From positions 68,794 to 132,793 of the forward strand of contig CBDUKN010000003.1 in NCBI GenBank assembly GCA_965367815.1: DNA of 64,000 nucleotides. The letters run 5' to 3'. The DNA is from an uncultured Thermoprotei archaeon. GTDB lineage: Archaea; Thermoproteota; Thermoprotei; Thermofilales; B15-G2. This document shows, in pieces, positions 11,703 through 64,000 of this stretch. Below the pieces are notes generated by a model, which saw only the letters and a program-made list of their open reading frames with translations, did not search any database and was not told the origin of the DNA. How positions within the stretch are numbered: the first letter of the stretch is position 1; every line of letters starts with the position of its first letter. A program made the position numbers and the translations under genes.

Positions 11703-11712
11703 AGCTCTTGAG

Positions 11713-12013: not shown

Positions 12014-12024
12014 AAGCAGTTTCT

Positions 12025-12549: not shown

Positions 12550-12726
12550 AATAGTTTCTGTAAACTAAAGCATCTTCAGCATCAGCAAAACTAATAGCCT
12601 TCTCTAAAATCTCTTGACTCATTTTATCACAGCATTTTATCTCGATACTGCTTATATTAGCGTCCATTAGAGTCGAAAACTCCGACAAAAAAGAATATAA
12701 TTATGTAATTACTTAATTACCTAGTT

Positions 12727-43656: not shown

Positions 43657-43905
43657 ATGAGTGTAGTAGTGAGTTTTAGAATAGATAAGAATTTGAAGCG
43701 CAAAATGGAAGAGTATAGTTACATTAATTGGAGTGAAGTTGTCCGCAGAGCTATAGCTGAAGTGATCGAAAAAGAAGAATCAAAAAGAAGAGGAAAAGAC
43801 TACGAGAGAATTAAGAGAGCAGCTCTGAGAACTAGAAAACTCATTAGAAAAATTGAGGGATGGAGTAGTGTAGAGGAGATTAGAAGATGGAGAGAAAAAT
43901 TGTAG
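43657..43905 (+). CDS. vapB: VapB-type (RHH-like) antitoxin
   Basis: 82 aa. VVSFRIDKNLKRKMEEYSYINWSEVVRRAIAEVI has a strand-helix-helix pattern. It overlaps the following PIN gene by 19 nt. Confidence 0.6.
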   Translation: MSVVVSFRIDKNLKRKMEEYSYINWSEVVRRAIAEVIEKEESKRRGKDYERIKRAALRTRKLIRKIEGWSSVEEIRRWREKL

Positions 43906-44315
43906 TTGTAGACGCAAGTGTTGTTGTTAAATGGTTTGTAGAAGAAAAATACTCGGAGGAAGCAAACTTGCTTAAAGACGCTTATGTCAGTGGCCTATTA
44001 GACCTAGCTGCGCCAGCTCTTCTGCCATACGAGGTTCTTAATGCATTAAAGTACTCAGGGCATTTTGGAGAAGATGAGCTTAAAGAAGTAGCAAGCATTC
44101 TTGAAGACTATCAGATAACACTCTATATTATCGAAGGAGATCTGGGCTCAAAAACTGTAGAGATAGCTATGAGAAAAGGCTTAACTATTTATGATGCAGC
44201 TTATGTAGCGTTAGCAGATAAACTAAAGACAGTACTATATACAGCAGATGAAAAGCTAATAAGAAAAGTAAGTGACGAGAATCTAGTAAAGCACATAGCG
44301 GATCTAGAAATATAG
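43887..44315 (+). CDS. vapC: VapC-type PIN-domain toxin
   Basis: 142 aa with IVVVDASVVVKWFVEE, LPYEVLNAL, IYDAAYVALA and LYTADEKL, the four canonical PIN acidic positions. Confidence 0.75.
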   Translation: MERKIVVVDASVVVKWFVEEKYSEEANLLKDAYVSGLLDLAAPALLPYEVLNALKYSGHFGEDELKEVASILEDYQITLYIIEGDLGSKTVEIAMRKGLTIYDAAYVALADKLKTVLYTADEKLIRKVSDENLVKHIADLEI

Positions 44316-47545: not shown

Positions 47546-50500
47546 TTGATGTTAAACAAGAGTAAAGCGACTTCTTTACTTCTAGCAACTCTACTTGTAT
47601 TCGGCTTCTATTACGCTGAAGCTGTTCTCTCTCAGCCCAACATACTTAAGCTCCTCGCTGGATCCTGGAGAGCAACTAAAGCTGGCTGGATAATAGTTCA
47701 CATAGAAGGAGACCCCTACAGAAGAGGTTTCCAGCACGGCTACTGGCTGGCAGACGAAATAGTAGAGTCTATTGGCGCACTCAAGCTATACCTTCAACAC
47801 TACCACGGTATTTCCTGGAAACAGGCAGTAAATCTCTCGGTTAGCTTAATGTGGTCTAAAGTCCCTGCAGAGCTTCAGAGCGAAATCTTCGGCATAGCAG
47901 ATGGAGTAAGAATAAGAGGCTACGATATTACTTGGAAAGATATTTTTACAAGCAATGCTTTCATGGACCTCGAAAGCTACCTTAATTCAAGGCGCCTCAG
48001 TAGTACTTCACACTACTTGTTCCTAGAGCTCCACTCAAGGTGCTCCGGCTTCATAGCCACGGGAAGCGCTACTAAAGACGGAGGAATAGTAGTAGCCCAC
48101 AATACTTGGTTTGCGTACTTCGTAGCCAGGTACTTCAATGTATTCATACACATTAAGCCCGATAAAGGCTACGAAATCTTCATGCAGAGCTTTCCCGGCT
48201 ACATGTGGAGCGGCACAGACTGGTACATAACTAGTGCAGGGCTAGTTATATCTGAGACAACTATCTCTATGTCGCTTTTCAATGAGTCAGGAATACCTGT
48301 ATTCGTTAGAGCGAGAATGGCCGCCCAGTACGCGTCCAGTATAGACGAGTGGGTAAACATAATGCTCACAGGAAACAACGGAGCATACTCCAATAGATGG
48401 TACCTCGGAGACATCAAAACAGGTGAAATAGCTGTAGTAGAAATAGGGCTCTCAACTTATGCAATCAACAGAACCAAAAACGGGTACTTCGTTTCAACAA
48501 ACATGGCTGTCAACCCGAAAGTAGCACAGGAGACAAGAAGTCTCTGCAGAAGCCTCGTCTGCAGCGGGTACGCCAGGTACGTGCGCCTTAATCAGCTTTT
48601 TGAAGAATACTACGGTAAAATAGACCTTGAGCTAGCTAAGAAGTTTATTTCAGACGACTACGACGTCTACCTTCAGAAAAAGACTCCTACTCATCGAACA
48701 GTAAGCATGTGCGGTGAAGTAATTGGAACTCCGTGGGGAGCAGTAGACGCGAAAGTAGCAGACTCTAGTTTAATTAAGAAGCTTCAAACACTAGCTATTT
48801 GGGGTCACCCGAACAAAATGGCTTTCGATGCTGAAGATTTTCTCAAAAAGAACCCCAAGTGGAGCTGGCAGAAAGACTACTTAGTAGATTTCCCATCTAA
48901 TGAGTGGGTTCTTCTCGAGCCTTCACCTAAAGTAGGCAATTTAGCTGAACTCGAAATAGGAGTAGAGAAAGCTAAAGAGTACTTGTCAAAAGCAGTAAGT
49001 GAACTAGCTACACTGAGATCAGTAGGCATTTACTTAAAGAGACTCGAAGACCAGGCTAGCTACGCCGCCAGCTTACTTGATGAAGCGCGGAATTTAAGCG
49101 AAATAGGCGACATGTACTCTTCAGTTGTTCTTTCCCTTAGAGTAATAGCTATCTCTAAAACAATTACTAAGATGTGTGAAGTACTGGAAACGCAAGCAAT
49201 ATCTTCTTTGCCTCTGTACACATTTCTAGCAGCAATACCTATTGTTTCCCTACCGAAAGTACTTGTAGAAGAAAAAGCTAGTAGAAAAACAAGAATAGCA
49301 GTAGCTGCAGTTCTCACAATAATAATATTTTTGCTACATCCTGGAGCTCTGCTAGCCTTAAAGAAAACAGAGTACAGTGTATTCTATGACTCCCTGCTAT
49401 GGTTTATTTTCGCTGCAGTATTCTTCTACACGCTAGTAGAGCTACTTCCATCTAAAGCTCCAGAAAAACCCAATCCAAGTGGATTCCAGCTACTATCAGC
49501 TTTCTTCGCGTACCTAAATATGAGCTTCCGGAACTTCAGAAAACGCAAACTCCGCTTCTTCTTAACGCTCACTACAATAGTTCTAGCTCTATCAGGTATA
49601 CTGGCTTTTACTTCAACTGAAGTAAGCCCGGGCCCAATGCTACTAGAAAGTATGCCGAGCGGTACTTGTGAAAACTTTATTGTAGTTAGGGGAAGAAGCT
49701 ACCGGCCAGTACCTTCAAGTATACTCGACTTAACTAAAGACCTTCCGCACACGGAAATAAGGTACGGCACCGGAATATCTTCGTACTACAGAGCTAGAGT
49801 CTACTTGCCTAAAGGAAGAGTATGGTTCTACGGAATACTAGCTGTTGAAGACAAGTACACTTCCAGTATGCTGAAGAAATATATTGTTGAGGGAAGACTG
49901 CCGGAGAACTCGGGTGAAATAGCACTACCTTCATATACTAAAAACTATGGAGCAAAGCTAGGCTCTAAGATAACAGTATACATTGGAGGCGCGGGCTGGT
50001 ATAAGCTCACAATAGTAGGCTTCTTCAGCAATAAGATAAACGAAATAAAAGATGTCGACTTAAAGTCGCCGCTACCCTACTACATTGAAACAATATATAC
50101 TGAAGGAGGAACAATTTACAGAACTAGGCCAGTCGACGGAGACCGCTTAATAATAGTATCCAGCAAAGACGTCGGCAGATTCAATTTAAGAATACTGTCA
50201 GTGCTCATACCGACGACTTCTATGGAAGACAGCTACAGGCTAATGAAAATTATACTAGACTCTGTACCCGACGTCGCAGTATACGTTGTCGGCGGAGGCT
50301 GGGTCAAAGGCTTCGTTAAAGCGGAAGTAATGAAGCTTAGAGGAGGAGAAGCAATAGTACTGCTAATCTTCGCGGGCTTAATGATGTTCGCCACAATGTC
50401 TGCGTCGCTGTACGAGAGGCTAGATGAGCTCAGAACAATGTCTGTTCTAGGGCTATCTCCGACACAGCTCCAAGTACTAGGCCTCACAGAAGACTTTATC

Positions 50501-51148
50501 TACGCCCTCCTCACAACACCTTTCTCCTTCATAGTAGGAATGTTTCTCAGCACTACTGCAGCCTACATGGGCGTAGAAGTATTAGCCTACAAGTTCTCCG
50601 CAACGTCGGCAGCAATGGTCTTCTTCTTCTCCTTCGTAATATGTGTTCTAGCATCCTATCCCGCTATCAGAAAAGCCTCTGTAGCAGCCACACCTTCACT
50701 TGAGCTGAAGTGGAAGCTCGAAGCAAAGAAAGTCAAAGGCTACAGAGGCCTACCGCTCTTCATAATAAATGTCCCCATAAGGTTCCCTGAAAAAGAAATA
50801 GACGAGGTTCTGAAAAATGTCGTCTCATACTTCAAGAGAGCTTTTAGCGAATATGGTGTTTTCGAGAGAGTAGACAATATAAGCTACGAAAAGAAGCCTG
50901 ACGAAAGAGTGCTCAAATTCAGGTACATGAGAATGAGCGAAAGAGACTTCGAAGTAGAAATCAAAGTAGTGGCCAAGAAAATACTAGAGGAAGACAGACC
51001 ATACTACAAAATGACAATATACCTTCAGCAGCTCGGCGCAGGAGCAGGCTACCGCGAATTCAACTACAGAGTGCTCTCAATGGTAAGAGAAGTGCTCCTT
51101 AAAAGTAGAGTACTGAGTTCTAAAGGCTACAAGCTTTTCAGAGACTAG
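47546..51148 (+). CDS. Fusion protein: signal peptide, C45-type Cys-Ntn hydrolase head, helical stalk, TM bundle, FtsX/MacB-type permease module, and a conserved cytoplasmic C-terminal domain
   Basis: 1200 aa. The ATG at 47549 is preceded by a GGTGAT SD. The head has WIIVHIEGDPYRRGFQHGYWLADEI and HSRC166SGFIATGSATKDGGIVVAHNTW (Cys codon 48041-48043), typical of peptidase C45/acyltransferase-like Ntn hydrolases. FtsX TM1 is FRNFRKRKLRFFLTLTTIVLALSGILAF. The MacB-PCD-like loop is VEGRLPENSGEIALPSYTKNYGAKLGSKITVY...KLTIVGFF. TM2-4 include LYERLDELRTMSVLGLSPTQL. About 155 aa follow the last TM. Confidence 0.75.
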   Translation: MMLNKSKATSLLLATLLVFGFYYAEAVLSQPNILKLLAGSWRATKAGWIIVHIEGDPYRRGFQHGYWLADEIVESIGALKLYLQHYHGISWKQAVNLSVSLMWSKVPAELQSEIFGIADGVRIRGYDITWKDIFTSNAFMDLESYLNSRRLSSTSHYLFLELHSRCSGFIATGSATKDGGIVVAHNTWFAYFVARYFNVFIHIKPDKGYEIFMQSFPGYMWSGTDWYITSAGLVISETTISMSLFNESGIPVFVRARMAAQYASSIDEWVNIMLTGNNGAYSNRWYLGDIKTGEIAVVEIGLSTYAINRTKNGYFVSTNMAVNPKVAQETRSLCRSLVCSGYARYVRLNQLFEEYYGKIDLELAKKFISDDYDVYLQKKTPTHRTVSMCGEVIGTPWGAVDAKVADSSLIKKLQTLAIWGHPNKMAFDAEDFLKKNPKWSWQKDYLVDFPSNEWVLLEPSPKVGNLAELEIGVEKAKEYLSKAVSELATLRSVGIYLKRLEDQASYAASLLDEARNLSEIGDMYSSVVLSLRVIAISKTITKMCEVLETQAISSLPLYTFLAAIPIVSLPKVLVEEKASRKTRIAVAAVLTIIIFLLHPGALLALKKTEYSVFYDSLLWFIFAAVFFYTLVELLPSKAPEKPNPSGFQLLSAFFAYLNMSFRNFRKRKLRFFLTLTTIVLALSGILAFTSTEVSPGPMLLESMPSGTCENFIVVRGRSYRPVPSSILDLTKDLPHTEIRYGTGISSYYRARVYLPKGRVWFYGILAVEDKYTSSMLKKYIVEGRLPENSGEIALPSYTKNYGAKLGSKITVYIGGAGWYKLTIVGFFSNKINEIKDVDLKSPLPYYIETIYTEGGTIYRTRPVDGDRLIIVSSKDVGRFNLRILSVLIPTTSMEDSYRLMKIILDSVPDVAVYVVGGGWVKGFVKAEVMKLRGGEAIVLLIFAGLMMFATMSASLYERLDELRTMSVLGLSPTQLQVLGLTEDFIYALLTTPFSFIVGMFLSTTAAYMGVEVLAYKFSATSAAMVFFFSFVICVLASYPAIRKASVAATPSLELKWKLEAKKVKGYRGLPLFIINVPIRFPEKEIDEVLKNVVSYFKRAFSEYGVFERVDNISYEKKPDERVLKFRYMRMSERDFEVEIKVVAKKILEEDRPYYKMTIYLQQLGAGAGYREFNYRVLSMVREVLLKSRVLSSKGYKLFRD

Positions 51149-51183: not shown

Positions 51184-53097
51184 ATGAATAAAACCAAGTA
51201 TTTATATACACTAGTAGCTTTACTGGCATTGAGTATATTTCTAAACGCCTTCTTAGCTGCACAGCCCATACCAAAGCTATTTTTCTGCAGAAGCAAGTCG
51301 TCGTTTTTAACACTAGTACCTGTTTCAGCGGCTACAGATACGCTCTTAATTCTGAGCGCCAACAGCTCTGAGGAAGCAGTACTCATAGCTAACTTCAAGA
51401 AGTACTACAGCGCTGAAGTAGTCGAAGCACCAGAAAATCCCCTTAAAATAGCTTTCTCGACATTAGGCACAAGTACAATAATTTTCGCTAACGTCAGCTC
51501 TCTGAAAAGCGTTCTCTACGGAGCATACTTAGCTGGAATACTCAAAAAACCTGTAGTTTTCTGCCGCGAATACAGAGTATTCAGCCAGTACTTAGCTCAG
51601 TACTCTCCCAAGAAAATATACCTAGTAGAGCTCTCTTGGAAAACAAGTGTAGAAGCGGTCTACTTCAAGAAAAGCGAAGCCGTAGTAGACTATGTCCTAA
51701 AAGAAAACCTCGCTAGAAAATTCATTGTCGTAACTAATCTAGGAGACGAGTACGCTGTAGTAGCCCCGTACTACGCTGCAATTAAAAAAGCAGTACTCTA
51801 TGTATCAAGCGACGTCACTAAAGACGAGAAGCTAGTAGAGCTCATTAAGAGAGTAGAACCAGAGTACGTAGTATACATTGCTTCCCTAAAGTACCTTAAG
51901 GGAGAAAAATATAGCACTATCAAAGACATCTACGGAGCATGCCTCAAAGGATTCGACAAAGACTACTTAATTCCAGCAGTATCTCTTCTCTCAGGAATAA
52001 GCATATTCGATGTCACTATGCTTATTGCTAAAGCAAAACTATACAACTTAGCTAAAGGAGACTGGAAGCATAGAGTAGCTCAAATCTACATGTATAACTC
52101 GTGGCCAATAGCAGTAAAGATGGCCTGGCTTCTCAAAATGTGCAATTACAGCGTAGTGTGGGTGTCATCAAACTTTAAGGGAACAAACTTGACTGCTGCA
52201 GACGTAAGCAAAGTGCTTAGAGAAAGCGGAGTACTAACTTACATAAACTTACATGGATCCCCTTACTCTATGGCTCCTACGACAGCAGGTCCCTCAGTCA
52301 TAACTCCTCGCACACTACCGCTTCTTCCTCCGACAGTAGTCTTCACTCTATCGTGTAGCACATGCGACTTCCAAGAACTGATCAGTGCCGAAAAAAGCAT
52401 AGCTTTTAGCTTCATTAGAATGGGGGCATTAGCCTACATAGGCTCACTTTACGTCGAGCTCGGAGGAGCAGAAACAAGTACAGCTCACCCAGAGCTACTG
52501 CTCATAAGTATTCTCAAGGGAAAAACTCTAGGAGAAGCAGTAAAATACGTGCTAAATCTCCACATAGGAGAGAGGAAGGAAAAAGATATTGCAGCTAGAA
52601 TACACGCAGTACTCATAGGAGACCCCGAGCTAAAAACATTCCCCAACGTAAATCTCTCCCTCTACAAGTTTAGAGTACTAGAAAAGAACAGGAAATTCGA
52701 AATAGTTCTAACTAAATCGACTACAGTAGTCTTCATAGACGAAATTGTCGTCAACGCTAAGAAAGAAGACATTAAGAAAATAGATATTCAGGGGCAGAGC
52801 GTACTCAGGTGGATTGTATACGAAGAGAAAGGTAGTAAAACAAGAATATTGGTATTCTTGTCTAGAGCTTTCTCAGAAATGGGCAATATTGTTGCTGGCG
52901 AGAAATTCATTATAACGATATATTATAAGAACCCTATGGCCCAGTACATGATAGTCTTAATAATTCTCCTAGTAGCATTATTTATAGCTGCAATAATACT
53001 AAAAGAAAGAATGAAAGCCAAGAAAACTCGAACGCGTTCAGTAGAGACCGGGCTGGATCGCTTGCCATGCGAAGGTGATACCAGTGCCCAGCGCTAG
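51184..53097 (+). CDS. Secreted, C-terminally membrane-anchored protein with a gingipain-like (peptidase C25, clan CD) catalytic core
   Basis: 637 aa with a signal-like N-terminus. KFIVVTNLGDEY...EPEYVVYIASLKYL resembles the C25 N-terminal region. The His-Gly (YINLH357GSP, codon 52252-52254) and Cys (VVFTLSC391STC, codon 52354-52356) lie 34 residues apart and are followed by GALAYIGS, as in clan CD peptidases. The C-terminal TM is YMIVLIILLVALFIAAIIL. Assignment is by eye. Confidence 0.5.
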   Translation: MNKTKYLYTLVALLALSIFLNAFLAAQPIPKLFFCRSKSSFLTLVPVSAATDTLLILSANSSEEAVLIANFKKYYSAEVVEAPENPLKIAFSTLGTSTIIFANVSSLKSVLYGAYLAGILKKPVVFCREYRVFSQYLAQYSPKKIYLVELSWKTSVEAVYFKKSEAVVDYVLKENLARKFIVVTNLGDEYAVVAPYYAAIKKAVLYVSSDVTKDEKLVELIKRVEPEYVVYIASLKYLKGEKYSTIKDIYGACLKGFDKDYLIPAVSLLSGISIFDVTMLIAKAKLYNLAKGDWKHRVAQIYMYNSWPIAVKMAWLLKMCNYSVVWVSSNFKGTNLTAADVSKVLRESGVLTYINLHGSPYSMAPTTAGPSVITPRTLPLLPPTVVFTLSCSTCDFQELISAEKSIAFSFIRMGALAYIGSLYVELGGAETSTAHPELLLISILKGKTLGEAVKYVLNLHIGERKEKDIAARIHAVLIGDPELKTFPNVNLSLYKFRVLEKNRKFEIVLTKSTTVVFIDEIVVNAKKEDIKKIDIQGQSVLRWIVYEEKGSKTRILVFLSRAFSEMGNIVAGEKFIITIYYKNPMAQYMIVLIILLVALFIAAIILKERMKAKKTRTRSVETGLDRLPCEGDTSAQR

Positions 53098-54960
53098 AGC
53101 TAGGCTTCCTCCAGCCCAGATTCCTGCAACTATGCTCAATAGGTAGTTTCTGGTCCACTCGTCTCCTTTTTTCCTCCTGATTATTTCTTTAATTATCCAG
53201 CCTATAAACGGCGAAGTAACTGAGCTCGGTAGAGCGCCTATACCCCAAGCTAAACCTATAGTAGACAGTACAGATGAAAGGAATGGCACTAGTTCCCACA
53301 CTACTCCGAAAATGAATCCTGCTATTAGCCAGTCTGGCCTAATGTAAGTGAATTTCTTTGTAATGAACATTACTAGCATCGCGGCGTCAGGGTAGAATGT
53401 TGGTGCTGGAAGTATACGTGAGGGGATGTCGTAGAGGTGCCAGAAGAGGTAGCCGAAGAACAGTCCGCTGATGCTAGCCATTATTCCTCCGATGACGTGT
53501 GCCTTGATAATGCTCATAGGCTTTGTTCTAGTGAGCTCAGCTGCCTTGAAGCCTATGCAGATTAATCCAGGGTCGCCTGTTACACCTGGACCTCCTAGGA
53601 ACGGCAGGAACCATCCTTCTACACCGTTGTAGAAGGCTATTAGTAGGGCTTGCTGAGCATACGGAATTGTTATACCTGAACCCATTAAGCCCGCGAAACG
53701 CCCAGCGCTCAGCGAGTTTACTAGTGCTAGACCTATTGTAATAGTCGGTATAAGCCATACTGGGAGATTGTCGTCGGGGTAGAACGTTATATCTACTATG
53801 TAGCTTAGTATACAGAGTCCAAGCGAGCCTATAAGCCACACTATTATACACTTCTTAGCAGACCATATTCCAAGCTCGCTTTCCTGCTCTTTGCTCAGCG
53901 AGAAAATACTCATTATTCCTTTAACAACGCCCTTAATGTTCTTGACGAAGGGCACTATTGCTGCAGCAACAGTTATTCCAATACTAATGCTTAGCCAGAA
54001 GTGGAGCATTGTCTCCATCCACACGCCTGTTAGACCAGGCCCCATCATCGGTGTACCTGGCTTCCACTTGTAGAGCCCTAGTCTCACTAGGATATTGTTT
54101 CCAAAAATCATTGTAGCTACGTAGCTTACTACAGCGCCGTAGATTACTGCGTCAGGTATAATCATTCCAATGCTTATAGCCAGAATATCGGCAGTAAAGC
54201 TCAGTGTTGCTCCGAAGAGAGGAGTATAGTCAAACATTGTTGTTAAGTCGATGTGTGTCGGGAAAATCTGTATTGGAACAGGGGATCCTGTAATAACCAT
54301 TAGCAGAGCTGGGGCAATATAGTAGGCTGTTCCGTAGAGAAATGCTATGAATGCTGAGAGACAGAAGATTTCATATCTCTTCGACTCGCCTTCCTCGGCT
54401 GCCAGGCTTTTAGCTAGCTCGGCTGCTAGAGCACCGGTTGGGAATGGAAGTTTCTCGATTTCAATGAAGATCTGTCTCATTAGGAAGGATAAGCCTACTA
54501 AGACGAGTATGCTGAAAGGTAGGCCTATGTAGCCTAGTGTAATTGGGAGAATCCAGTCTGGGTGGAAGATTGTTCTCTGTATTAAGGCGGGCGAGTTCGC
54601 TGGAGGTACTACGTATATAGGTATTTTGTCTGCTATGCCTGCCTGCCTAGTTATGGGAGATTTTCTCAAGAAGACGTTGTACGCTATTCCTGTTACAGCG
54701 CCTACTGCGGCGCTAGCGCCCCACCTTATTGTAGCTAGCTCGCTTTCGCTAAGGGGGCTTCTCATGAGTCTGGCGAGTTCTCCGAAAATAACCATTGTGA
54801 CGTAGGCGGCGTAAATAGGGCCTACGCCTATTCCTGTCGATAAAAGAACCCAGCCGAAGGCTGGGGTCATTATTAGGCTGCTGAAAATCATTGCGAGAAT
54901 AACTCTGTCAGTAAATCCTTCTCTGAGACCAGTTACGCTGGCTTCAGTCTTACCTGACAT
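53038..54960 (-). CDS. Polytopic membrane transporter-like protein (possible OPT oligopeptide-transporter superfamily), paralog 1
   Basis: 640 aa with many hydrophobic helices. The N-terminal GFTDRVILAMIF...L.TGIGVG and the later KAAELTRTKPMSIIKAHVIGG...LPAPTF resemble OPT-family patterns. It sits 57 nt downstream of the 1494-aa gene on the same strand, and GGTGAG lies 4 nt before its ATG. Confidence 0.45.
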   Translation of the reverse strand: MSGKTEASVTGLREGFTDRVILAMIFSSLIMTPAFGWVLLSTGIGVGPIYAAYVTMVIFGELARLMRSPLSESELATIRWGASAAVGAVTGIAYNVFLRKSPITRQAGIADKIPIYVVPPANSPALIQRTIFHPDWILPITLGYIGLPFSILVLVGLSFLMRQIFIEIEKLPFPTGALAAELAKSLAAEEGESKRYEIFCLSAFIAFLYGTAYYIAPALLMVITGSPVPIQIFPTHIDLTTMFDYTPLFGATLSFTADILAISIGMIIPDAVIYGAVVSYVATMIFGNNILVRLGLYKWKPGTPMMGPGLTGVWMETMLHFWLSISIGITVAAAIVPFVKNIKGVVKGIMSIFSLSKEQESELGIWSAKKCIIVWLIGSLGLCILSYIVDITFYPDDNLPVWLIPTITIGLALVNSLSAGRFAGLMGSGITIPYAQQALLIAFYNGVEGWFLPFLGGPGVTGDPGLICIGFKAAELTRTKPMSIIKAHVIGGIMASISGLFFGYLFWHLYDIPSRILPAPTFYPDAAMLVMFITKKFTYIRPDWLIAGFIFGVVWELVPFLSSVLSTIGLAWGIGALPSSVTSPFIGWIIKEIIRRKKGDEWTRNYLLSIVAGIWAGGSLALALGTGITFAWQAIQPGLY

Positions 54961-55017
54961 TATCTCACCAGACCGAAAAAGAGTGCTTTTGAAAGTATTT
55001 AAGTTTTCCTATAAGAG

Positions 55018-58000
55018 CTACTCTTCTTTCAGATACTTTGACAGCTCTTCTTTAGCTGTCTTGATGTAGCGCTTGCGGTCGGCTAGAGTCAGTGCTCTCC
55101 ACATCAATAGCTGCTTTCTTACAGCGTCGGCGAACTTTCTTACTCCTCTCCTGTAGACGTAGTCTATTCCGCTTACTCTATTTATGTCAAGTGTTGTTTT
55201 AACTATTTGTGAGCCAGCTGGTACGTGGAAGTGCAGATCGCTGGTCATTACTACTCCGCTGTCGAAAGGCTTCACTTTAACGGTAGTGTGCAGTATAGTT
55301 GTCTCGCCTTCGGCCGAGACTTTCTTGCATAACTCGATTTTATCTATCATGAAGTCTGCTGCTGTCTCAGATCTGTGCAGGTTGAAGTATTCTATGAGGT
55401 AGTTTATTAGACCGTCTAGCTCAAGTGGGCTTACCACTACTGGGATATTAATCATGTAGCGGTCTCCTCTTTTGATACCTACTGTCTCTATACGCCATCT
55501 GCGCTCGAAGGACGGCGTTACTGCTTTAGATGCGACTGATACAGGGTATATTGCGGCTGTAAGCGTAATGAGTATTGATAGTCCTACTGCACCAGCTACC
55601 CATGAAGATGAGGTGTTCAACACTAGGCCTGGTATTAGCTTAGGCAGTACTATTCCGCAGAGGTAGCCTAGTACTCCTGAGACGACACCTATAATCATGA
55701 ATTCTAGTAGGAACAGTCCAGCCACGTGTGTCGGCGACAGACCTATAGAGCTCAGTATAGAGACTTCTCTTTTGCGCTCGTAGACTGCGCTCAGACATGT
55801 GTTGAGTATAATGAACACTAGTATTCCCACAGGAATTAGTGCTTCTCTACCGATAACCTGTTCTGAGAGTATTTTAGCATATACTCTTACTTCCTTGTCT
55901 TTTGCAGCACATATCTTGTATTTAATTCTGTAAGTTAATCTCTGGGCAATTTCATACACTTTACTTGGGTCTTCGAGCACTACTGCTACAGAGAAGACCG
56001 CGCCGTGGTGTCTTAAAACAACCTTGTAGGGGACTATGATTATTTCCTCGCCTTCAAGTCTACGCGCCTCTAAAGCCTGTACACGGCCGCCTCCAGGAGC
56101 CTCTATAGCTAGAGGTGTCACTAAGTCGTTATTCGGGTCTCTAATCGACTCAAGCCACTCTGCATTGAATATTCCTACTACTTTGAGTGCTTCTCCTTCG
56201 AACGTTAAGTAGTCTCCTATACTTATATTATACTGAGTTGCCAGTATGTCAGGTATTAAACACTCTTTTACATCGTCTGAAGAGAAGTACTGGCCTATAA
56301 TATAGCCTTTCTTGAGAGCGTCTTCAATATATGTGTACCTCTCTCCTTGAGAGAGCCCTAAAATACCCTTTACAAAAATCATTCTTCCCTTATAGATTAG
56401 CTCGTATCCTTCTTTTCTCTCACCGCCTCTCATTACTTCGGGCCTAATAAACTGTATTAGTCCCCTTTCAAGATACGCTCTAGGAGCTATTGCTTTAATA
56501 ATGTCTGAGAGCTCTCCTTTAAACTGTGTTATGGCCTCAAGTGGAACAGGAGCTATTTCTCCACGTACTATCAGTAGGCCGTCGTAGGTTATGGCGTGTT
56601 CGGGTAGTTTGTAGTGTTCTATAAGAGTTACGATTTTAGTAGTTGTAACCGAGAGTGTACTGACTAGAGTAGCTACTACGACCATTAGCGAGACCATTGT
56701 TAGTCCTGTTCTAAGTTTACGTCTCCTGAGGTTACCCGCGCCTAGAGAAGCAGCCATTATTAGTGCGCTAGCTCTGCTTATGTCAGAGAAGTGTACTCCC
56801 GTAGTTTTCAGGCGGAACTTCTTTGCCGTTTCAATAACCCTTGACAGTATTAGCCCGAGAGGTGCCATTATAACAAATATCAGAACAAAAGCTATCACAA
56901 CTAGGGGCGCATTTGATGCTAGCGCAAGGGCTGGGTGCACAAAGTACATTATAGAAGTCGAAGTGACTAGGAGAAGTGCTATTGCGAGAGCTCTCTTGCG
57001 CAGCGACTCGAAGTTAAAGAACAGTCTTTCGGCGAGAAACGCGAATGGTAAGGCTAGTAGAAGGAAGATTGCTGCCGCGAAGCTTGTATCTATCATTGTT
57101 CTCCTGAGGTCGTCGTATACTGCTCTATAGTAGCTCCAAGCAGCAATAGCTAGAGCTATGCCTTTCTCATACTTCTTCTTGGCTATAGCTTCTTCTGCTT
57201 TCTTGAGAGTCTCGTTGGCTATCTCAAAGTAATGTAATATTGTAGGCAAGTAGAGCTGATGAGCCAATGCTTTGTGCATGTACTGGCTACATAGTAGCTG
57301 GAACTCCTTGGCGTAGACTAGTGGAGAGCACTTGATTAATACTTGCTCACAGCCTGTAGGTGTTATACCGTATCCACTATTAGTGAGTACTACTAGGTGG
57401 TATGTTGAGTAAGATGGGAATATTATAACATCCCATGGAGGACCAGGAGGTATTGAGGGATCTGCACTGACATAAATTGCAACGTAAGGTCTCAGAGTTT
57501 CTCTAGACATTGTGTGCCACTTGAGGTCATAGTTTAAGCCAAAGTATCTTGTGCTGCTCTTAGTGTTGTGGTTCACTACGAGTATAACCGGTATCAGTGG
57601 CTGTAGAGACTCTGGGTCAAGGAGGTCGGAGAGTATTATTGTAGCAGCCTTGAAGAGCGAGGTTCTCACTGTATATTCAGGGGCATTTATTCTAACGCGG
57701 AAGCTTGGGAGAGCTGTATCACCCATGTTAGGCATGTATCTATCTCCGGTCTTGTAGTCAAACTTGTATGCATAGAAGCTGTAAGGACCTCTATTGTGTG
57801 GAGCAAGCGCCTTAAGCACAGCAATACCATGTTCATCTGTCTTAACTATAATTTGGTGGTTTACACTAGATGAAATAAAGTTAAACTGCGCCACTACTAA
57901 TGCCTCGGGCACCGGGTGATACCTCTGCTCTGCCTCTGAGTACTCTTCGACAGAAACTATTGCTTTCGGTATGTTACGCTGGTCTACTCTACTGAACTCT

Positions 58001-59502
58001 AGTGGGAAGGGCGCGTCAGCTGAAGCAAGTTTCTCTAGCCATACTACGGCAATAAACGCGTAGTAAATAGAGTTAGATAGCCGTGAAGCCGTGCTCATGT
58101 AGGTGTCCGCTGGAGTGCCTCTGAGTGGAGAATACGTGTCTGCGGTTATAGCTATACCGTATCCTCCAGCCTGCACAAGAGGCTCTATTTCAAAGTATTT
58201 TCTCCAGAGGAGCTGGTAACTATCTGGGTTATAGTAGGGTGAAGCTGTTATTATTCCTTCTTGTGTAATAAGGTTAAAGAGAACAGATTTTTCTTTATAT
58301 AGGAATTCTATTAGATCCAGTATACCAAAGTCGGGGTTGCTGAAGAAACTTTCTTCGGTGAGCCTCTTACTTTCGGGAGTTGCTCCATAGAAAGCTCCAG
58401 CGTCGAGTAAGGCTATACGTGTTTCGCCTTTAGGCTCGTAGTATGCAGATGGGTCTAAGTGAATCATTAGCTTAATGTCTGTTAAGTTTATTGGAGCCAG
58501 AGGCTTTTCAAAAGCATGAGAGAAAGCAAATTCTCTCGCACCCGCGAGAGCTTGGTGATGTCCTGAGAAAGCAATAAAAGCTACAGTACGTAAAGGCTTT
58601 TCGTCCTTAAATAGCTTAGCTATAGCCAGTAGAGAGGATATGCCTAGTGCTTCATCTGCACCAGGAGACCAGGCCGGAGCAACAGACCATGAATCAAAGT
58701 AAGCTGTCAATGCGACAACTTCATCAGAATATTTAGAGCCTTTCTTGAGCGCTATAATGTTATATGCTGCAACATTCTCGAAAGTCATATTCACTACTAT
58801 TTTTGCCTTAACTCTTTCTCCAGCATCGAGCTCTGAGAGGATATCCTTGAAGTCGTTCCAGTCTACAGCGAGCCTAGGAGCGTATATAGGTAGCTCAGAA
58901 AACTTGTCTGCTGCCTCAATTTGAGTTACACTTCCTGAAAGAGGATTAACTACAAAGATAATTGCTTTAGCGCCTAGAGAAATAGCTCTCATCCACTCAT
59001 ATCCGCTGTCGAACTCCATGACCACGATCTTGTTGTCAATATCCTTCCCGTTCATTTCTTCTTTGCCGTGTCCAATGTAAACTAGCTCAGCTGTAATACC
59101 GTTAGGAGTATAGCATGTTTCAACAAGGTTAGGGACCAAAGCATAAGCTTTAATGACCTTATGATAAGGAGACAGGATCTCAACATAAGAGCCATAGTCT
59201 ATTGGAACCGTTACAGTAAAGTTCTCTACATAAACATCATACCCATAGCTTTTGAGAGATTCGACAATGTAGTTTACTGACTCGTAGTAGCCCGGATAGC
59301 CTACAACTCTAGAGCCTCTCGAGGCGAAGAACTCTAAGTGTGTCCTTACTTCAGTCGAATAGTACTTGGAAAATTCATTTAGCTTAGTTTCATAGGCGTC
59401 TCCCGCGGACAGAAGAGGTAGTTGCATTTGGGGTATACATAGTATAGTTAGTACTAGAATTAATGCAATGGTCTTTATGTTACCGGATCTTACAACCGGC
59501 AT
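55018..59502 (-). CDS. Fusion protein: signal peptide, PA-domain/M28-like head, beta-rich region, helical stalk, TM bundle, FtsX/MacB-type permease module, and a conserved cytoplasmic C-terminal domain
   Basis: 1494 aa. PA domain: NGKDIDNKIVVMEFDSGYEWMRAISLGAKAIIFV. M28-like: LTAYFDSWSVAPAWSPGADEALGISSLLAIAKLF and FIAFSGHHQALAGAREF. FtsX TM1: GAGNLRRRKLRTGLTMVSLMVVVATLVSTL. PCD-like loop: ...ECLIPDILATQYNISIGDYLTFEGEALKVVGIF. TM2-4 include VYERKREVSILSSIGLSPTHV. The 166-aa C-terminal domain is homologous to that of ORF 47546..51148. Confidence 0.75.
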   Translation of the reverse strand: MPVVRSGNIKTIALILVLTILCIPQMQLPLLSAGDAYETKLNEFSKYYSTEVRTHLEFFASRGSRVVGYPGYYESVNYIVESLKSYGYDVYVENFTVTVPIDYGSYVEILSPYHKVIKAYALVPNLVETCYTPNGITAELVYIGHGKEEMNGKDIDNKIVVMEFDSGYEWMRAISLGAKAIIFVVNPLSGSVTQIEAADKFSELPIYAPRLAVDWNDFKDILSELDAGERVKAKIVVNMTFENVAAYNIIALKKGSKYSDEVVALTAYFDSWSVAPAWSPGADEALGISSLLAIAKLFKDEKPLRTVAFIAFSGHHQALAGAREFAFSHAFEKPLAPINLTDIKLMIHLDPSAYYEPKGETRIALLDAGAFYGATPESKRLTEESFFSNPDFGILDLIEFLYKEKSVLFNLITQEGIITASPYYNPDSYQLLWRKYFEIEPLVQAGGYGIAITADTYSPLRGTPADTYMSTASRLSNSIYYAFIAVVWLEKLASADAPFPLEFSRVDQRNIPKAIVSVEEYSEAEQRYHPVPEALVVAQFNFISSSVNHQIIVKTDEHGIAVLKALAPHNRGPYSFYAYKFDYKTGDRYMPNMGDTALPSFRVRINAPEYTVRTSLFKAATIILSDLLDPESLQPLIPVILVVNHNTKSSTRYFGLNYDLKWHTMSRETLRPYVAIYVSADPSIPPGPPWDVIIFPSYSTYHLVVLTNSGYGITPTGCEQVLIKCSPLVYAKEFQLLCSQYMHKALAHQLYLPTILHYFEIANETLKKAEEAIAKKKYEKGIALAIAAWSYYRAVYDDLRRTMIDTSFAAAIFLLLALPFAFLAERLFFNFESLRKRALAIALLLVTSTSIMYFVHPALALASNAPLVVIAFVLIFVIMAPLGLILSRVIETAKKFRLKTTGVHFSDISRASALIMAASLGAGNLRRRKLRTGLTMVSLMVVVATLVSTLSVTTTKIVTLIEHYKLPEHAITYDGLLIVRGEIAPVPLEAITQFKGELSDIIKAIAPRAYLERGLIQFIRPEVMRGGERKEGYELIYKGRMIFVKGILGLSQGERYTYIEDALKKGYIIGQYFSSDDVKECLIPDILATQYNISIGDYLTFEGEALKVVGIFNAEWLESIRDPNNDLVTPLAIEAPGGGRVQALEARRLEGEEIIIVPYKVVLRHHGAVFSVAVVLEDPSKVYEIAQRLTYRIKYKICAAKDKEVRVYAKILSEQVIGREALIPVGILVFIILNTCLSAVYERKREVSILSSIGLSPTHVAGLFLLEFMIIGVVSGVLGYLCGIVLPKLIPGLVLNTSSSWVAGAVGLSILITLTAAIYPVSVASKAVTPSFERRWRIETVGIKRGDRYMINIPVVVSPLELDGLINYLIEYFNLHRSETAADFMIDKIELCKKVSAEGETTILHTTVKVKPFDSGVVMTSDLHFHVPAGSQIVKTTLDINRVSGIDYVYRRGVRKFADAVRKQLLMWRALTLADRKRYIKTAKEELSKYLKEE

Positions 59503-59703
59503 CGAATCCTATTCTTTTAAACAATCTAATTAAATTTTCGCCGACAAATAAATTCCTTTCTAACTTTAACTTAAAGAAGAAGCCCTAGACTACGTATAGT
59601 TCTACTTCTACTGAGTACTCAGCCGGATAAACACACTGAAAACACTTTCAACTGAATACTTATTTAACTATGTAAAATTCAATATATTAAGTGGTAACTG
59701 TAG

Positions 59704-59720
59704 CAGACTCCACCAGTCTG
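59704..59720. promoter_or_regulatory. Perfect 6-5-6 palindrome CAGACT-N5-AGTCTG in the divergent intergenic region
   Basis: cagactccaccagtctg, read directly from the sequence. It lies about 27 bp upstream of the TATA-like box for the 59783 gene, within the 280-bp region between the divergent genes 55018..59502 and 59783..61768. It is a candidate operator only. Confidence 0.2.
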
Positions 59721-59746
59721 TTCAGTATATATACTTTACTGTAGGG

Positions 59747-59754
59747 TTTAAATA
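59747..59754 (+). promoter_or_regulatory. TATA-like box (TTTAAATA) for gene 59783..61768
   Basis: TTTAAATA ends 28 nt before ATG 59783. This spacing is consistent with an archaeal TATA box at about -26 and a leaderless or short-leader transcript. It supports ATG 59783 over the TTG at 59756 used by the ORF track. Confidence 0.35.
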
Positions 59755-59782
59755 GTTGAGTTGTTATAACTCTGCGACCCGT

Positions 59783-61768
59783 ATGTCTGAAGGAACTGGT
59801 AAGACCGAAGTGACCGAGAAGGGACTAGCTGCCTACAGACTGCCCATAAAGGGTCTAATACTAGGCATAATCGGAATGCTCCTCGCTGTATGGATTATCA
59901 AAATAATCGGCCCTGTCAGCGGCTTCCTACCCACAGCTGAAACATCATTAATGTTCATTATCCTCATAGCCTTAATAACATCATTCCTGCCTCCTAAGCT
60001 CAGGCTATCAATGGAAGACTATGTAGTAATCTTCGCTATGATCTACGCGGCTCCAGCTGTGAGCGATGGTTCATTATTCTTCTCTCTACCAATATGGATT
60101 CATACAGATGTATATTCCTGGCTCAACAGTATGAAGGCACAAGGCCTAGTGCCTTCTTGGGTCTTCGGACCCAAGGAACTATACGACTTAGCTCTTAAAG
60201 GAGGAGTATCTCCACCATGGGGACAGCTAACCCCATGGATACTGACAGGATTTGTTGTCACAATAGCTTACGCTCTAGCCTACATGCTCGCCGCCGCTGC
60301 CTTCAGAAGGCAGGTAATTGAAGTAGAGAGAATAGTCTTCCCGGTAGCTACAGCCACATACACTTCAGTAATAAGCGCTTACGCGGTGGGAGAAGAAGCC
60401 AAGGCCCCTCTACTAGGCACTAAGAGAAACTGGATGATTGTAGGACTCTTAGTAGGATTCCTCCTAACAGCCTTCACTGAAGGATACTTAGTCTCAAGAG
60501 TAGCACCCTGGCTACCAGTAATACCAGGCACCACTGATCTCTCGCCACAACTATGGAAAGCCGTGCCCGGCCTAATGCTAGACATGTATTGGAACAGCTT
60601 CTTCCCATGGAGCTTCTTTGGATTCTTCTTCCCAATGGAGAGCCTGATAGGCATCAGTATAGGCGCTATCGTAACATACATGATACTGCTACCACTAGAA
60701 ATTAGAATGGGACTAATACCTTCGTTCGACATGTCCATGAGCAAAGAAGACGTATGGTTCTATGCGTTCAGAGTTGAGGGTTTCAAGTTCTTCTTCGGAG
60801 CAGTAGCTATGATCAACGCTGTAGTGATCGCATACTATATTACAGGTCTCAAGTCACTAAGAGAAACATGGAAAGAGAACCCTGAAGACGCATTCGGCCG
60901 CTACAGAACAACAGCCATACTAGCTATTGTAGGCATACTTGTGTTCCTAGCAGTAGGCGTAATTTTTGGAGGATTCCTCCCAGCAATATTCCTCATAGCA
61001 CTAGACATACTGTTCCTCGCCAACATGTTCTGGATTCGCGGCATTGGAGAATGTAACTTAATGTGGAGTGTCTGGGCCGTCTACTTTATGGATGCACTAC
61101 AGATTTGTGAAGTAATGGGTGTTGTCCAGAGAGGTGTAGGTGAAGTAACACCTATGCTAGTAGGAACATACGCTCCAATGATGCTAGCATTAGAGACTTC
61201 AAGTATGGCTGGAGTAGCCTACATGGAGACAAGCAGATTCGCTTTCTTAGCCAAAGTCAGTCCCAAGAAAGTTGCAGCAGCTCTCATAGTAGGCTTCATT
61301 ATTGCATACTTCATTGAATCCATTATTTCAGCTCAGTTAACATTCCAGTTCGGCATAAGGCACGACTACTTTGGTGCATGGGGCTACGGATACTACATAT
61401 TCTTCTATCCATATAGAGCTATTCACCAAGTAGACGTTATTGAGGCCTGGTACTCGCTAAGCGGCGCAGCTATACCCTTCTATGCCTTCTGTTTCATACT
61501 AGGCTTCGCATTAACGTTCGCTAGATACAGGTGGGCTATACCAATAAGCGCTATCGGTCTAGCCTTCGGCATGGGCCTAGATCCATGGAGCTTCGGCTAC
61601 ACGTTCATACCATACCTCGTCATCAAGTGGCTAATGCTCAAGCTAGGTGGCACTAAGCTAGTAGAGCAAGTAGGTGCACCATTCTTCGCCGGTGCCTCTG
61701 CCGGAGGAATGCTAGCAGCCTTCTTCGCAGGCATTGCTGCATACTACCAGGCAATATACGGAGGATAG
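59783..61768 (+). CDS. Polytopic membrane transporter-like protein (possible OPT superfamily), paralog 2
   Basis: 661 aa from ATG 59783 (MSEGTGKTEVTEKG...), comparable to the paralog's N-terminus MSGKTEASVTG.... Size and polytopic character are similar. An oligo-T run follows the stop. Confidence 0.45.
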   Translation: MSEGTGKTEVTEKGLAAYRLPIKGLILGIIGMLLAVWIIKIIGPVSGFLPTAETSLMFIILIALITSFLPPKLRLSMEDYVVIFAMIYAAPAVSDGSLFFSLPIWIHTDVYSWLNSMKAQGLVPSWVFGPKELYDLALKGGVSPPWGQLTPWILTGFVVTIAYALAYMLAAAAFRRQVIEVERIVFPVATATYTSVISAYAVGEEAKAPLLGTKRNWMIVGLLVGFLLTAFTEGYLVSRVAPWLPVIPGTTDLSPQLWKAVPGLMLDMYWNSFFPWSFFGFFFPMESLIGISIGAIVTYMILLPLEIRMGLIPSFDMSMSKEDVWFYAFRVEGFKFFFGAVAMINAVVIAYYITGLKSLRETWKENPEDAFGRYRTTAILAIVGILVFLAVGVIFGGFLPAIFLIALDILFLANMFWIRGIGECNLMWSVWAVYFMDALQICEVMGVVQRGVGEVTPMLVGTYAPMMLALETSSMAGVAYMETSRFAFLAKVSPKKVAAALIVGFIIAYFIESIISAQLTFQFGIRHDYFGAWGYGYYIFFYPYRAIHQVDVIEAWYSLSGAAIPFYAFCFILGFALTFARYRWAIPISAIGLAFGMGLDPWSFGYTFIPYLVIKWLMLKLGGTKLVEQVGAPFFAGASAGGMLAAFFAGIAAYYQAIYGG

Positions 61769-61945: not shown

Positions 61946-64000
61946 ATGATGACTTCAAAATATTTGCTAATGGGGCTAGCAGCAGTAATACTAGTTCAGC
62001 TAGCTCTAGTCCATAGTCAGCCTAGCATATATATTGAAGTAAAGGGTGTCGTAAGAGATGCTGTAACAGGTAAGCCTCTGGGAGATACAATTATCGTAGT
62101 CTACAATAGGAGCGCGGCAAAAGCTTCTCCAGTGCTCATTAAGACCGACAGTGAAGGCCGTTTCTCTATAGGGCTTATTCCTCAGTTGAGCTATACTCTG
62201 CACTTTATTCATGCCAATGAAAAAGGTTTAATAGACTATGTTCCTGCATGCCTTACTATAGAGAAAAACGCGGTGTCAGTAGAGTGTGAAGTGAAGCTCT
62301 ATCCTGGTGCAGTTCTATGCATTAAAGGAGACCTATACTATATTGGCGGAGAGGTTTCGCGGTGGAGGCGCTACGTTGTCTTAAATGTTGAGAACCGGAG
62401 GTACTCTGAGGTATTTTCCTGTGGAGAAGCTGTAGTCAAGACTATTACTGGTGAATCTGGTCGAGTTAAAGTAAGTCTGCTAGACGAGTACGGATCTGTA
62501 CTGTACTTTGTGCTGAAGAACAGTCCTATATCGAAAACACTCAACGAAAGTATTGTTGTAGTTCCCGCAGACTCGCCTATAGTTATTTTAGCTACAGCGC
62601 CCGCTAAGAACTACAGGACAGGCTACTTCGATGAAGTACACTTCTACGTAGATAATCCTACTCTAAGGAAGGGGCTTTCTCAGGGAACTTTCCTCGTATA
62701 CGATATTACAGCTGACTCTCTCAGCTACTGTATTAAGCTAGTTGAAGAGGATATAAGGAAGCTCGAGTCTATGGTAAACGAGTTCGAGAGTATAGGCTTC
62801 TATGTCGCTGAGGAGAGGTACAGGTATCTTGACGAAGCGAAGAGGCTTGTAGAGAGAGCTAGAAGCTACATTATAGAGACTGGAGTTGAAGAAGCCTTAA
62901 CTATGCTGGAGAAAGCTGACGCTATTGTCTGGCCAGGTGAGAGAGGTATACTTTACAACAGGCTGATGTTCATGAAGCTCGTCGCTAAAGAAAGTGCAGC
63001 AGTACTCCCAGTGTTACTTGCTGTATTCGCTATAGCTATGGGCATGTTCTTTCACGAAGACTTGAAGAAAAAAATAGCTACGACGGTAGCTTTCTATGTG
63101 TTGTTCCTCGTGCTCTTCATATATTCTTATCCAGGCTTTAAGCTAATAGATGCAACTAAGTTCACTGTAAGCACTATAGGCTCGCTGGCTGGGGCGCTAG
63201 CACTTTTCTTCGTGCTTCCGCGCTACTTTAAGGAACTCGAGGTTCCGGGTAAGGCGTCGTTTTCAAGTATTGTGGCAATAACAGCGTCTATTGCTAAGAG
63301 ATATGCTAGAGTAAGGAAGCTGAGGACAACGATTACTATTTTCTCGCTGGCGATACTGATATGGGCTTTCACAGTACTCACATCTGTCTCTACAATACAC
63401 ACTATTGTTTCAGAAGCCCCAGTCAACGTACTCTACTCGGGTACAGCAGTTGTTGTTAGAGCATACTACAAGGATATGCCTGAGTCGCTGTCTCTACAAG
63501 ATACTGGTCTCTGCGAGCACTTCTTTAAGCCGAAAGTACTCGCTGTTAGAGCCTACCTCAAGCCTACTTTTGCCGGAGAATCTAAGATCTATGTTGGCGG
63601 CAGGAGAATAGTATCTATTATGGGTATAGGGCCTGAGGAACGTGAGTTCTGGCTTAAAGGAAACGTGGTTGAAGGAGATTTAGCTAAACTCGATGATGAG
63701 GGAGTGCTGCTACCAAAGTCTCTTGCATACAGGATTGGAGCAAAGGTAGGCGATAAAGTAGTGCTCTACATAGAGAACAGGATCTACGGTGTTTACAAAG
63801 ATACTTTGACAGTAGTAGGCATATACGACGATGCTGCTGTAGGGAACTTGGACATAGATAAGAAGCCGGTACTGCCCTTCATTCTCTCTGGAGAAAATAT
63901 CGTTTACTGTAATGCGTCTAGTACAGTTATTGTCAGCTGGAAGTACTTGATGTACAGGCTGTTCCCCGACACGAAGACAGGTATTTCCCGCGTATCGAGC
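61946..64000 (+). CDS. Partial (3'-truncated by the window end) fusion protein: signal peptide, CarboxypepD_reg-like beta-sandwich head, coiled-coil stalk, TM bundle, FtsX/MacB-type permease module
   Basis: Absent from the ORF track because no stop occurs in the window. I translated 61946..64000 by hand and found 685 codons with no stop. The N-terminus is MMTSKYLLMGLAAVILVQLALVHS. The head is IEVKGVVRDAVTGKPLGDTIIVVYN...TDSEGRFSIGL. The stalk is DIRKLESMVNEFES...EAKRLVERARSYI. Three TM helices follow. FtsX TM1 is AKRYARVRKLRTTITIFSLAILIWAFTVL. The PCD-like loop is VEGDLAKLDDEGVLLPKSLAYRIGAKVGDKVVLY...LTVVGIYDD. Confidence 0.7.
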   Translation, partial: MMTSKYLLMGLAAVILVQLALVHSQPSIYIEVKGVVRDAVTGKPLGDTIIVVYNRSAAKASPVLIKTDSEGRFSIGLIPQLSYTLHFIHANEKGLIDYVPACLTIEKNAVSVECEVKLYPGAVLCIKGDLYYIGGEVSRWRRYVVLNVENRRYSEVFSCGEAVVKTITGESGRVKVSLLDEYGSVLYFVLKNSPISKTLNESIVVVPADSPIVILATAPAKNYRTGYFDEVHFYVDNPTLRKGLSQGTFLVYDITADSLSYCIKLVEEDIRKLESMVNEFESIGFYVAEERYRYLDEAKRLVERARSYIIETGVEEALTMLEKADAIVWPGERGILYNRLMFMKLVAKESAAVLPVLLAVFAIAMGMFFHEDLKKKIATTVAFYVLFLVLFIYSYPGFKLIDATKFTVSTIGSLAGALALFFVLPRYFKELEVPGKASFSSIVAITASIAKRYARVRKLRTTITIFSLAILIWAFTVLTSVSTIHTIVSEAPVNVLYSGTAVVVRAYYKDMPESLSLQDTGLCEHFFKPKVLAVRAYLKPTFAGESKIYVGGRRIVSIMGIGPEEREFWLKGNVVEGDLAKLDDEGVLLPKSLAYRIGAKVGDKVVLYIENRIYGVYKDTLTVVGIYDDAAVGNLDIDKKPVLPFILSGENIVYCNASSTVIVSWKYLMYRLFPDTKTGISRVSS

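Follow-up and report, generated by a model that had tools for sequence, protein, structure and literature searches.

The described transporter that the proteins discussed here most resemble is barley YS1 (HvYS1) of the OPT family, a homodimeric importer for which an elevator-like, proton-coupled mechanism has been proposed and in which Lys482, on transmembrane helix (TM) 9, binds the carboxylate of the substrate (PMC9691689). We analyzed a window of 64,000 nucleotides (nt) from an uncultured Thermoprotei archaeon (GenBank assembly GCA_965367815.1, contig CBDUKN010000003.1, positions 68,794 to 132,793 of the forward strand), in which the genes for two OPT-like membrane proteins, A and B, flank a gene for a 1,494-amino-acid (aa) protein that fuses an M28-like ectodomain to two FtsX-type membrane modules. 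To our knowledge, no characterised OPT/YSL transporter is co-encoded with a giant FtsX-type surface protein of this kind. With moderate confidence, we take A and B to be elevator-fold transporters of the OPT superfamily that form, together with the M28-like/double-FtsX protein, a conserved three-gene unit of Thermoproteota.

The gene for A (53038..54960, minus strand) encodes 640 aa from an ATG start, according to the open reading frame (ORF) and its translation. As an earlier annotation of this stretch (the original prediction) had stated, it lies downstream of the fusion gene (55018..59502, minus strand) on the same strand, starting 57 nt past its stop. The GGTGAG box that was reported 4 nt before the ATG is present, but the spacer is 3 nt (ATA). 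The gene for B (59783..61768, plus strand; 661 aa) is also real. The mechanical ORF opens at TTG 59756; we prefer the ATG at 59783, which fits both an identical database protein of 661 aa and the MSE... N-termini of the orthologues, and a TTTAAATA box lies ~37 nt ahead of it. B and the fusion gene, which stands between A and B, are divergently transcribed from a 280-nt spacer. Proteins identical to A and B are in the databases as DRN04_04460 and DRN04_04450, both labelled 'hypothetical protein', as are all named members of these families in uncultured Thermoproteota, including Bathyarchaeia.

A matches the Pfam OPT family (PF03169) with 60 bits against a cut-off of 25.8 (E 2.4e-16), over profile positions 120-615 of 623. 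Both proteins had been described as polytopic, and hydropathy agrees, giving 10 strongly hydrophobic 19-residue segments in A and 12 in B. An AlphaFold model of A from 13 family sequences (pLDDT 82, pTM 0.87) is all-helical, and its only significant fold matches in the PDB are to the barley YS1 entries 7wsr and 7wst (Foldseek E 2.3e-12, TM-scores 0.65 and 0.69). The fold of HvYS1 consists of a transport core and a scaffold and has inverted repeats. The further Foldseek hits have E-values above 8e-3 and TM-scores of ~0.1, and no other PDB chain falls below E 1e-3. Sequence identity between A and YS1 is ~15-16%; searches of the PDB sequences with the A-family profile and with a narrow B-family profile gave no match, nor did an NCBIfam search with A or B. 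A is a true OPT-family protein, passing the Pfam threshold and sharing the fold of a solved member, and the best explanation of its sequence and model is that it would work as an elevator-type secondary transporter of that family.

Two motifs are common to A and YS1. The first, at residues 470-487 of A (GFKAAELTRTKPMSIIKA; 53500..53553, minus strand), is nearly invariant in the A family, with K472, A473, A474, E475, T477, T479, S483 and K486 as its near-invariant columns, and is equivalent to the YS1 motif DFKTSYLTQTSPKS. The segment of A that had been picked by eye as OPT-like, GFKAAELTRTKPMSIIKAHV (FKAAELTRTKP...), is nearly invariant in the A family and does align with this YS1 motif. Among PDB sequences it matches the YS1 stretch DFKTSYLTQTSPKSMMIAQV best (7wsr 494-537), a match that is weak when taken alone (E 0.17). 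Lys482, which binds the substrate, is probably part of the YS1 motif, and the alignment probably places K472 of A on that lysine, given an inferred offset between the numbering of the chain and that of the paper. A basic residue is kept at this position in both proteins, K472 in A and R485 in B. The second motif, residues 167-180 of A (EIEKLPFPTGALAA; 54421..54462, minus strand), is common to the A family, the B family and YS1 (KLVYPSGTATA); it aligns with residues 180-193 of B, and E169, L171, P172 and P174 are invariant in the A family.

The original prediction called A and B paralogous, in part on account of similar N-termini. Homology stands, but close paralogy does not. BLASTP aligns only a 75-residue C-terminal stretch of the two (37% identity, E 4e-4), and because this direct match is marginal, profile methods were needed. 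Using hhalign, the A-family profile matches a 7-member B-family profile with a probability of 97.4% (E 1.4e-11, 509 columns, 19% identity) and a 63-sequence B-family alignment with a probability of 99.96% (E 7.7e-39, 578 columns). Judged by these alignments, A and B are superfamily-level homologues (~19% identity) and not close paralogues; the best explanation is that they would have diverged from each other anciently. We rejected the N-termini as evidence for paralogy, since the consensus there is 'x' at every position in both families. The marginal direct similarity, together with the lack of a family match for B itself, could be read as a sign that the two are unrelated hydrophobic ORFs placed near FtsX genes by chance. 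That reading, which we consider next to impossible, is refuted by the profile homology (E 7.7e-39) and by the linkage to one partner gene in 43 of 43 cases across several archaeal classes, described below.

The resemblance to OPT transporters, claimed for both proteins, was upheld for A but not in the same form for B. B has no Pfam match at E <= 1, so it does not reach the PF03169 threshold. Two of its seven close orthologues give weak OPT matches, and two of the seven match DUF6785. (DUF6785 and DUF6784 are Pfam PF20581 and PF20580.) A search of 1.84 billion proteins with the 7-member profile returned only 101 cluster representatives at E <= 1e-3, almost all of them 630-710 aa long and aligned collinearly from end to end. 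In the aligned family of 63 sequences (B and 62 relatives), 59 match DUF6785, 48 match DUF6784 and 11 match OPT. The profile of these 63 sequences matches the HvYS1 sequence (7wsr) with an E-value of 9.5e-12 over 378 residues, including the motifs E.LPFP.ATA and K.A.LT...P. An AlphaFold model of B, made from seven sequences, reached a pLDDT of only 37. From the profile comparisons, B is a divergent DUF6785/DUF6784-type branch of the OPT superfamily; we assign it to the superfamily and not to PF03169 because B itself has no Pfam match. Literature searches for DUF6785 and DUF6784 returned nothing.

We scanned genomes, one per species, with A-family patterns, and analyzed the resulting loci with tblastn and family hidden Markov models. 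The scan found 42 loci, all of them from uncultured Thermoproteota except for a weak match in Bacillota (L049); the lineages are Thermoproteales, Thermofilaceae, Bathyarchaeia, Brockarchaeota and a Korarchaeia-like metagenome-assembled genome (MAG). We recovered 43 distinct A-type genes from uncultured Thermoproteota, and every one of them is in a cassette with an M28-like/FtsX fusion gene. In 26 of these the A-type gene stands directly downstream of the fusion, on its strand and at a distance of -67 to 111 nt, while the remaining A-type genes abut the 5' end of the fusion or have only a B-type gene in between. A B-type gene lies within 6.5 kb of the A-type gene in 33 of the 43. The contigs of the orthologues carry the same set in shuffled order: the M28-like/FtsX fusion, a B-type gene, an A-type gene and often a weak C25-like gene. 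Two further remote homologues of A, taken from the protein collection, have the same fusion immediately upstream, and a distant DUF6785 gene is followed by a gene with PA and M28 domains. Because the three-gene set recurs in many uncultured Thermoproteota, A, B and the fusion probably work as one undescribed unit.

The cassettes also diverge together. Distances among A-type proteins correlate with those among the adjacent fusions (Mantel r 0.87, a value reached by 0 of 2,000 permutations), a correlation that owes part of its strength to shared organismal phylogeny. Where a genome has three cassettes, the same subtypes of A and fusion go together, which indicates that cassettes duplicate and diverge as units. 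Single MAGs hold three or four cassettes that are paralogous but differ in subtype (L012/L024/L050, L013/L025/L030 and L009/L036/L041). Such multiplicity suggests functional diversification, for example in substrate range, and an important role in these organisms.

The fusion protein consists of an N-terminal TM, an ectodomain of ~775 aa that includes the M28-like domain, TM2-4, TM5, a MacB-type periplasmic core domain, TM6-8 (FtsX) and a tail of ~170 aa. By hydropathy, its TM pattern is 1+3 and 1+3, that is, two FtsX-type four-TM modules in one chain. Pfam FtsX matches residues 1226-1326 with 46.7 bits (cut-off 25.5), MacB_PCD matches residues 932-1188 with 21.1 bits, under its cut-off of 27, and there is a weak match to LolCE. 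An FtsX four-TM module has an extracytoplasmic domain between TM1 and TM2, and the fusion has this arrangement. The tail (residues 1325-1494; 55021..55530, minus strand) is predicted to be cytoplasmic from the FtsX topology. It is conserved, with invariant or near-invariant P, R, W, F.D..RKQ..W and Y columns and the motifs VTPS..RKW and F.D..RKQLL.WR, and it matches no Pfam family and no PDB sequence.

The M28-like domain is degenerate. Pfam M28 matches residues 248-356 (58435..58761, minus strand) with 44.9 bits against a cut-off of 21.3, over only positions 1-99 of the 193 in the profile. A canonical M28 enzyme has the zinc ligands His, Asp, Glu, Asp and His and a catalytic Glu. In HMMER alignments to three solved aminopeptidases, 3iib, 6hc6 and 2anp (AAP), a ligand His of the fusion is replaced by Tyr, and the catalytic/ligand Glu-Glu pair by His-His. 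An alignment of 39 fusion sequences extends this to the family: the His ligand varies (H/Y/N), as does the bridging Asp (D/N/S), a His (H315) is conserved where the catalytic Glu would be, and the residue that follows shows no conservation. Neither the three structures nor the 39 homologues, then, give the domain the canonical M28 zinc ligands and catalytic Glu. From these alignments the fusion is probably not a canonical di-zinc aminopeptidase, and its M28-like domain may be a pseudo-enzyme or receptor, or an altered enzyme. The description of the partner as 'surface hydrolase-like' is therefore doubtful.

The window contains three FtsX fusions and only two OPT-like genes. The other two fusions are a C45-type protein (47546..51148, plus strand), whose ectodomain is a C45 autoproteolytic acyltransferase/hydrolase (NCBIfam, 143.7 bits), and a third fusion (61946..64000, plus strand; to 1,012 aa in L055, 12164-15202) with a CarboxypepD_reg-like ectodomain. 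Both have the overall architecture of the M28-like fusion (signal/TM, ectodomain, three TMs, TM, ectodomain, FtsX) with different ectodomains, and neither has an OPT-like partner of its own in the window. B does precede the third fusion, as predicted, with 177 nt and a T-rich run after its stop codon separating the two. Each of the two proteins thus literally adjoins an FtsX fusion, but the conserved partner of both is the same one, the M28-like fusion that A and B flank. The 'repeated pairing' of a transporter with a fusion did not survive: one M28-like/FtsX gene partners both proteins, and we rejected a pairing of B with the third fusion because the loci of close relatives that we examined did not show this adjacency.

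Bacterial FtsEX controls surface hydrolases, and the fusion could belong to a type VII ABC (MacB/FtsEX-like) mechanotransduction machine that has its ATPase gene elsewhere in the genome. A LolD/FtsE-type ATPase would then drive the fusion to remodel or export a surface component, with A and B supplying or recycling material by export, flipping or salvage. The FtsX and MacB_PCD domains and the weak LolCE match fit such a machine, and we considered whether an ABC ATPase was hidden in the locus. A motif scan found no ORF with a Walker-A motif and an LSGGQ signature in the 64-kb window or in the 7 kb beyond. No cassette that we scanned contains an ABC ATPase gene, and such a gene was present anywhere within ~10 kb in only 5 of 50 loci. 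Two Bathyarchaeia loci do have an orphan ATPase of 222 aa, 2.2 kb upstream of the fusion (L022 2441-3109, L031 ~2511), whose best scores are to LolD, MacB and FtsE models. A gene for an aldehyde:ferredoxin oxidoreductase lies between it and the fusion. In L054, a small FtsX gene and an ABC_tran gene form a pair 1.5 kb downstream of the cassette (11595-13024). These three loci favor the machine with a separate ATPase; the scans, and the fact that the sole solved member of the OPT family is an importer, speak against it, and we regard it as quite unlikely.

Another alternative stays closer to the original prediction, which saw in the locus a site of peptide degradation and uptake, as the family names would suggest. 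Here A and B would be independent, general oligopeptide importers in a loose catabolic island, co-regulated with S45, C45-FtsX, C25-like and M28-FtsX hydrolases and not physically coupled to any of them. A is indeed an OPT-family protein, and the window does cluster a Penicil_amidase gene, the C45/Phospholipase-B-like FtsX fusion, the weak C25-like gene and the M28-like fusion. Genes of the succinyl-CoA ligase/ADP-forming acyl-CoA synthetase type, which would also fit such an island, recur within a few kb of cassettes (L002 926-1801; L003 12530-14521; L005 1932-3880; L007 1898-4018), and an M48 peptidase gene recurs in L003 and L005; the two recurring types could be a hint of amino-acid fermentation or plain synteny. 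However, the S45 and C45 genes, like the position of B next to the third fusion, fall outside the conserved unit: elsewhere they are not conserved beside A or B, and only the M28-like/FtsX fusion is, in 43 of 43. The start/stop overlaps, gaps of a few nt and co-divergence of paralogues exceed what co-regulation alone usually preserves, and the M28-like domain is probably no canonical peptidase. We consider a loose island of this kind unlikely.

We return to the reading that we favor, in which A, B and the fusion act as one unit for surface capture and uptake. The ectodomains of the fusion (a degenerate PA/M28-like domain and the MacB-type periplasmic core) would be exposed at the cell surface and anchored by eight FtsX-type helices. 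There they would capture, and perhaps process, an extracellular organic substrate bearing a carboxylate, most plausibly peptides or amide-linked compounds. A and B, perhaps as a heterodimer, would import what was captured, driven by the membrane potential or a proton gradient. We infer import and a peptide- or amide-like, carboxylate-bearing substrate from the OPT family and the conserved basic residue, and the heterodimer from the one solved OPT member, which is a scaffold-mediated dimer. Transport in the OPT family is proton-coupled and acts on oligopeptides, glutathione or metal-chelates. Physical contact among the proteins would be a further step of the same kind. Tight spacing, universal linkage and cassette-wise co-divergence speak for a physical or obligate functional link rather than for co-regulation alone, and the unit is possibly a physical complex. 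The original prediction offered such a complex as its second choice, and operon spacing, the 43 of 43 linkage and the co-divergence of paralogous cassettes favor it, if anything. It was also to be given up if there was neither transporter-family support nor conserved synteny with FtsX fusions, or if the two proteins were not significantly similar to each other; we found OPT support for A, conserved FtsX-fusion synteny and significant A-B profile homology.

Several observations weigh against a capture and uptake unit. The idea of a peptidase that feeds a transporter is unsupported because the M28-like domain lacks the canonical catalytic apparatus. Ten of the 43 cassettes have no detectable B-type gene (several of these are at contig ends), and the same is true of L053. 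Part of the Mantel correlation is phylogenetic, as stated above, and with a model of such low pLDDT, the fold of B is read from profiles. The neighboring genes do not consistently point to peptides, with GH38 and GH3 glycosidase genes upstream in the window. Finally, we know of no prokaryotic OPT or DUF6785 protein of these lineages with a known substrate.

A more ambitious version, to which we give little credence, joins the three proteins into a single membrane machine of an undescribed kind, in which an FtsX/MacB-fold mechanotransmission module that had lost its ABC ATPase would be coupled instead to an elevator heterodimer of the OPT superfamily. This machine might take either of two forms. 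In one, elevator movements driven by an ion gradient could power conformational work in the surface ectodomains. In the other, the tethered pseudo-peptidase ectodomain could be an obligate substrate receptor, making the system an archaeal counterpart, by analogy, of binding-protein-dependent secondary transport. In either form, the predicted cytoplasmic tail of ~170 aa would be a coupling or regulatory element.

Other genes accompany the cassette in part of its range. A C25-like gene (51184..53097, plus strand) encodes a membrane-anchored protein of 637 aa with a weak Pfam C25 match (E 0.0016, below the cut-off) and no match among PDB sequences. It converges on the gene for A, and the two overlap by 60 nt at their 3' ends (53038..53097). 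Homologues stand beside the cassette in seven loci (L003, L007, L009, L013, L014, L015 and L023), and the gene is an accessory member of the cassette in the closest subfamily. In one sublineage of cassettes, a PqqD-like gene (PF05402, peptide-binding, RRE-type) comes right after the A-type gene (L016 5309-5659; L017 11800-12150; L018 6944-7336, the same as L053 9836-10231); in L054 it is ~1 kb downstream (11105-11650), and our window contains no PqqD-like gene. Just upstream of the locus are a GH38 alpha-mannosidase-like gene (37241..39712, plus strand), a gene for a GH3 glycosidase with PA14 (39759..42620, minus strand) and a PIN-domain gene (43887..44315, plus strand), so the neighborhood is not purely peptide-related. 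In L001 the PIN gene is paired with an RHH gene and resembles a toxin-antitoxin pair.

Literature searches on OPT, FtsX, M28 and archaea, and on DUF6785 and DUF6784, found no description of this cassette. A and B add new, divergent members to a known superfamily; in the literature that could be searched, their trio with an FtsX-fold fusion, with no ATPase in the cassette, is undescribed. With their link to the OPT fold and a fixed partner, DUF6785 and DUF6784 acquire a first functional context. Bathyarchaeia, in which the cassette is found, are abundant in sediments. Surveys may count M28-like proteins such as the fusion as extracellular aminopeptidases, a reading that may be wrong for the fusion, whose catalytic residues are missing. 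One study warns that counts of peptidase genes do not predict protein catabolism (PMC9123169). If the physical complex is true, this fold would show a new principle of coupling, in which FtsX-type modules work with secondary transporters and not with an ABC ATPase.

Among the described systems that come close to this locus are the OPT/YSL transporters (PF03169, TC 2.A.67; HvYS1 7wsr/7wst). A scores above the Pfam threshold, its model can be superposed on HvYS1, the proteins are alike in length (640-690 aa) and in their all-helical, elevator-type build, and the motifs L-x-[FY]-P...A-T-A and [KR]...L-T-x-T-x-P are common to the A family, the B family and YS1. The differences are the low identity to YS1 (~15-16%), the position of B below every Pfam threshold, and the co-encoding of two diverged members with a giant FtsX-type surface protein. 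DUF6785 and DUF6784 proteins agree with the B family in length and full-length collinearity, and match 59 and 48 of its 63 sequences, although B itself has no match at E 1; what is added here is that they are tied to the OPT fold and have a conserved partner gene.

The fusion resembles two other groups. With non-catalytic M28-fold proteins (transferrin receptor, nicastrin and nicalin) it shares the loss of metal ligands; its matches to these three are weak and non-significant (E 0.05-0.6) and appear alongside true aminopeptidases, and, unlike in those proteins, an altered enzyme is conceivable given the conserved His where the catalytic Glu would be. With MacB, FtsEX and LolCDE it shares the FtsX four-TM modules, the MacB-type core, the large extracytoplasmic domain between TM1 and TM2 and, as for FtsX, the association with a hydrolase-fold ectodomain. 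In contrast to these systems, two modules are fused in one chain, the hydrolase-like domain is fused and not recruited, the cassette has no ATPase gene, and the conserved partners are proteins with a secondary-transporter fold. The unit as a whole may be compared with TRAP systems, in which an elevator-type secondary transporter is served by an extracytoplasmic capture domain. The likeness to TRAP and TAXI systems would be one of function, in that the elevator-fold proteins A and B would be served by a surface domain with a degenerate catalytic site; in sequence and fold the systems are unrelated, and here the capture domain would be tethered to the membrane through FtsX modules.

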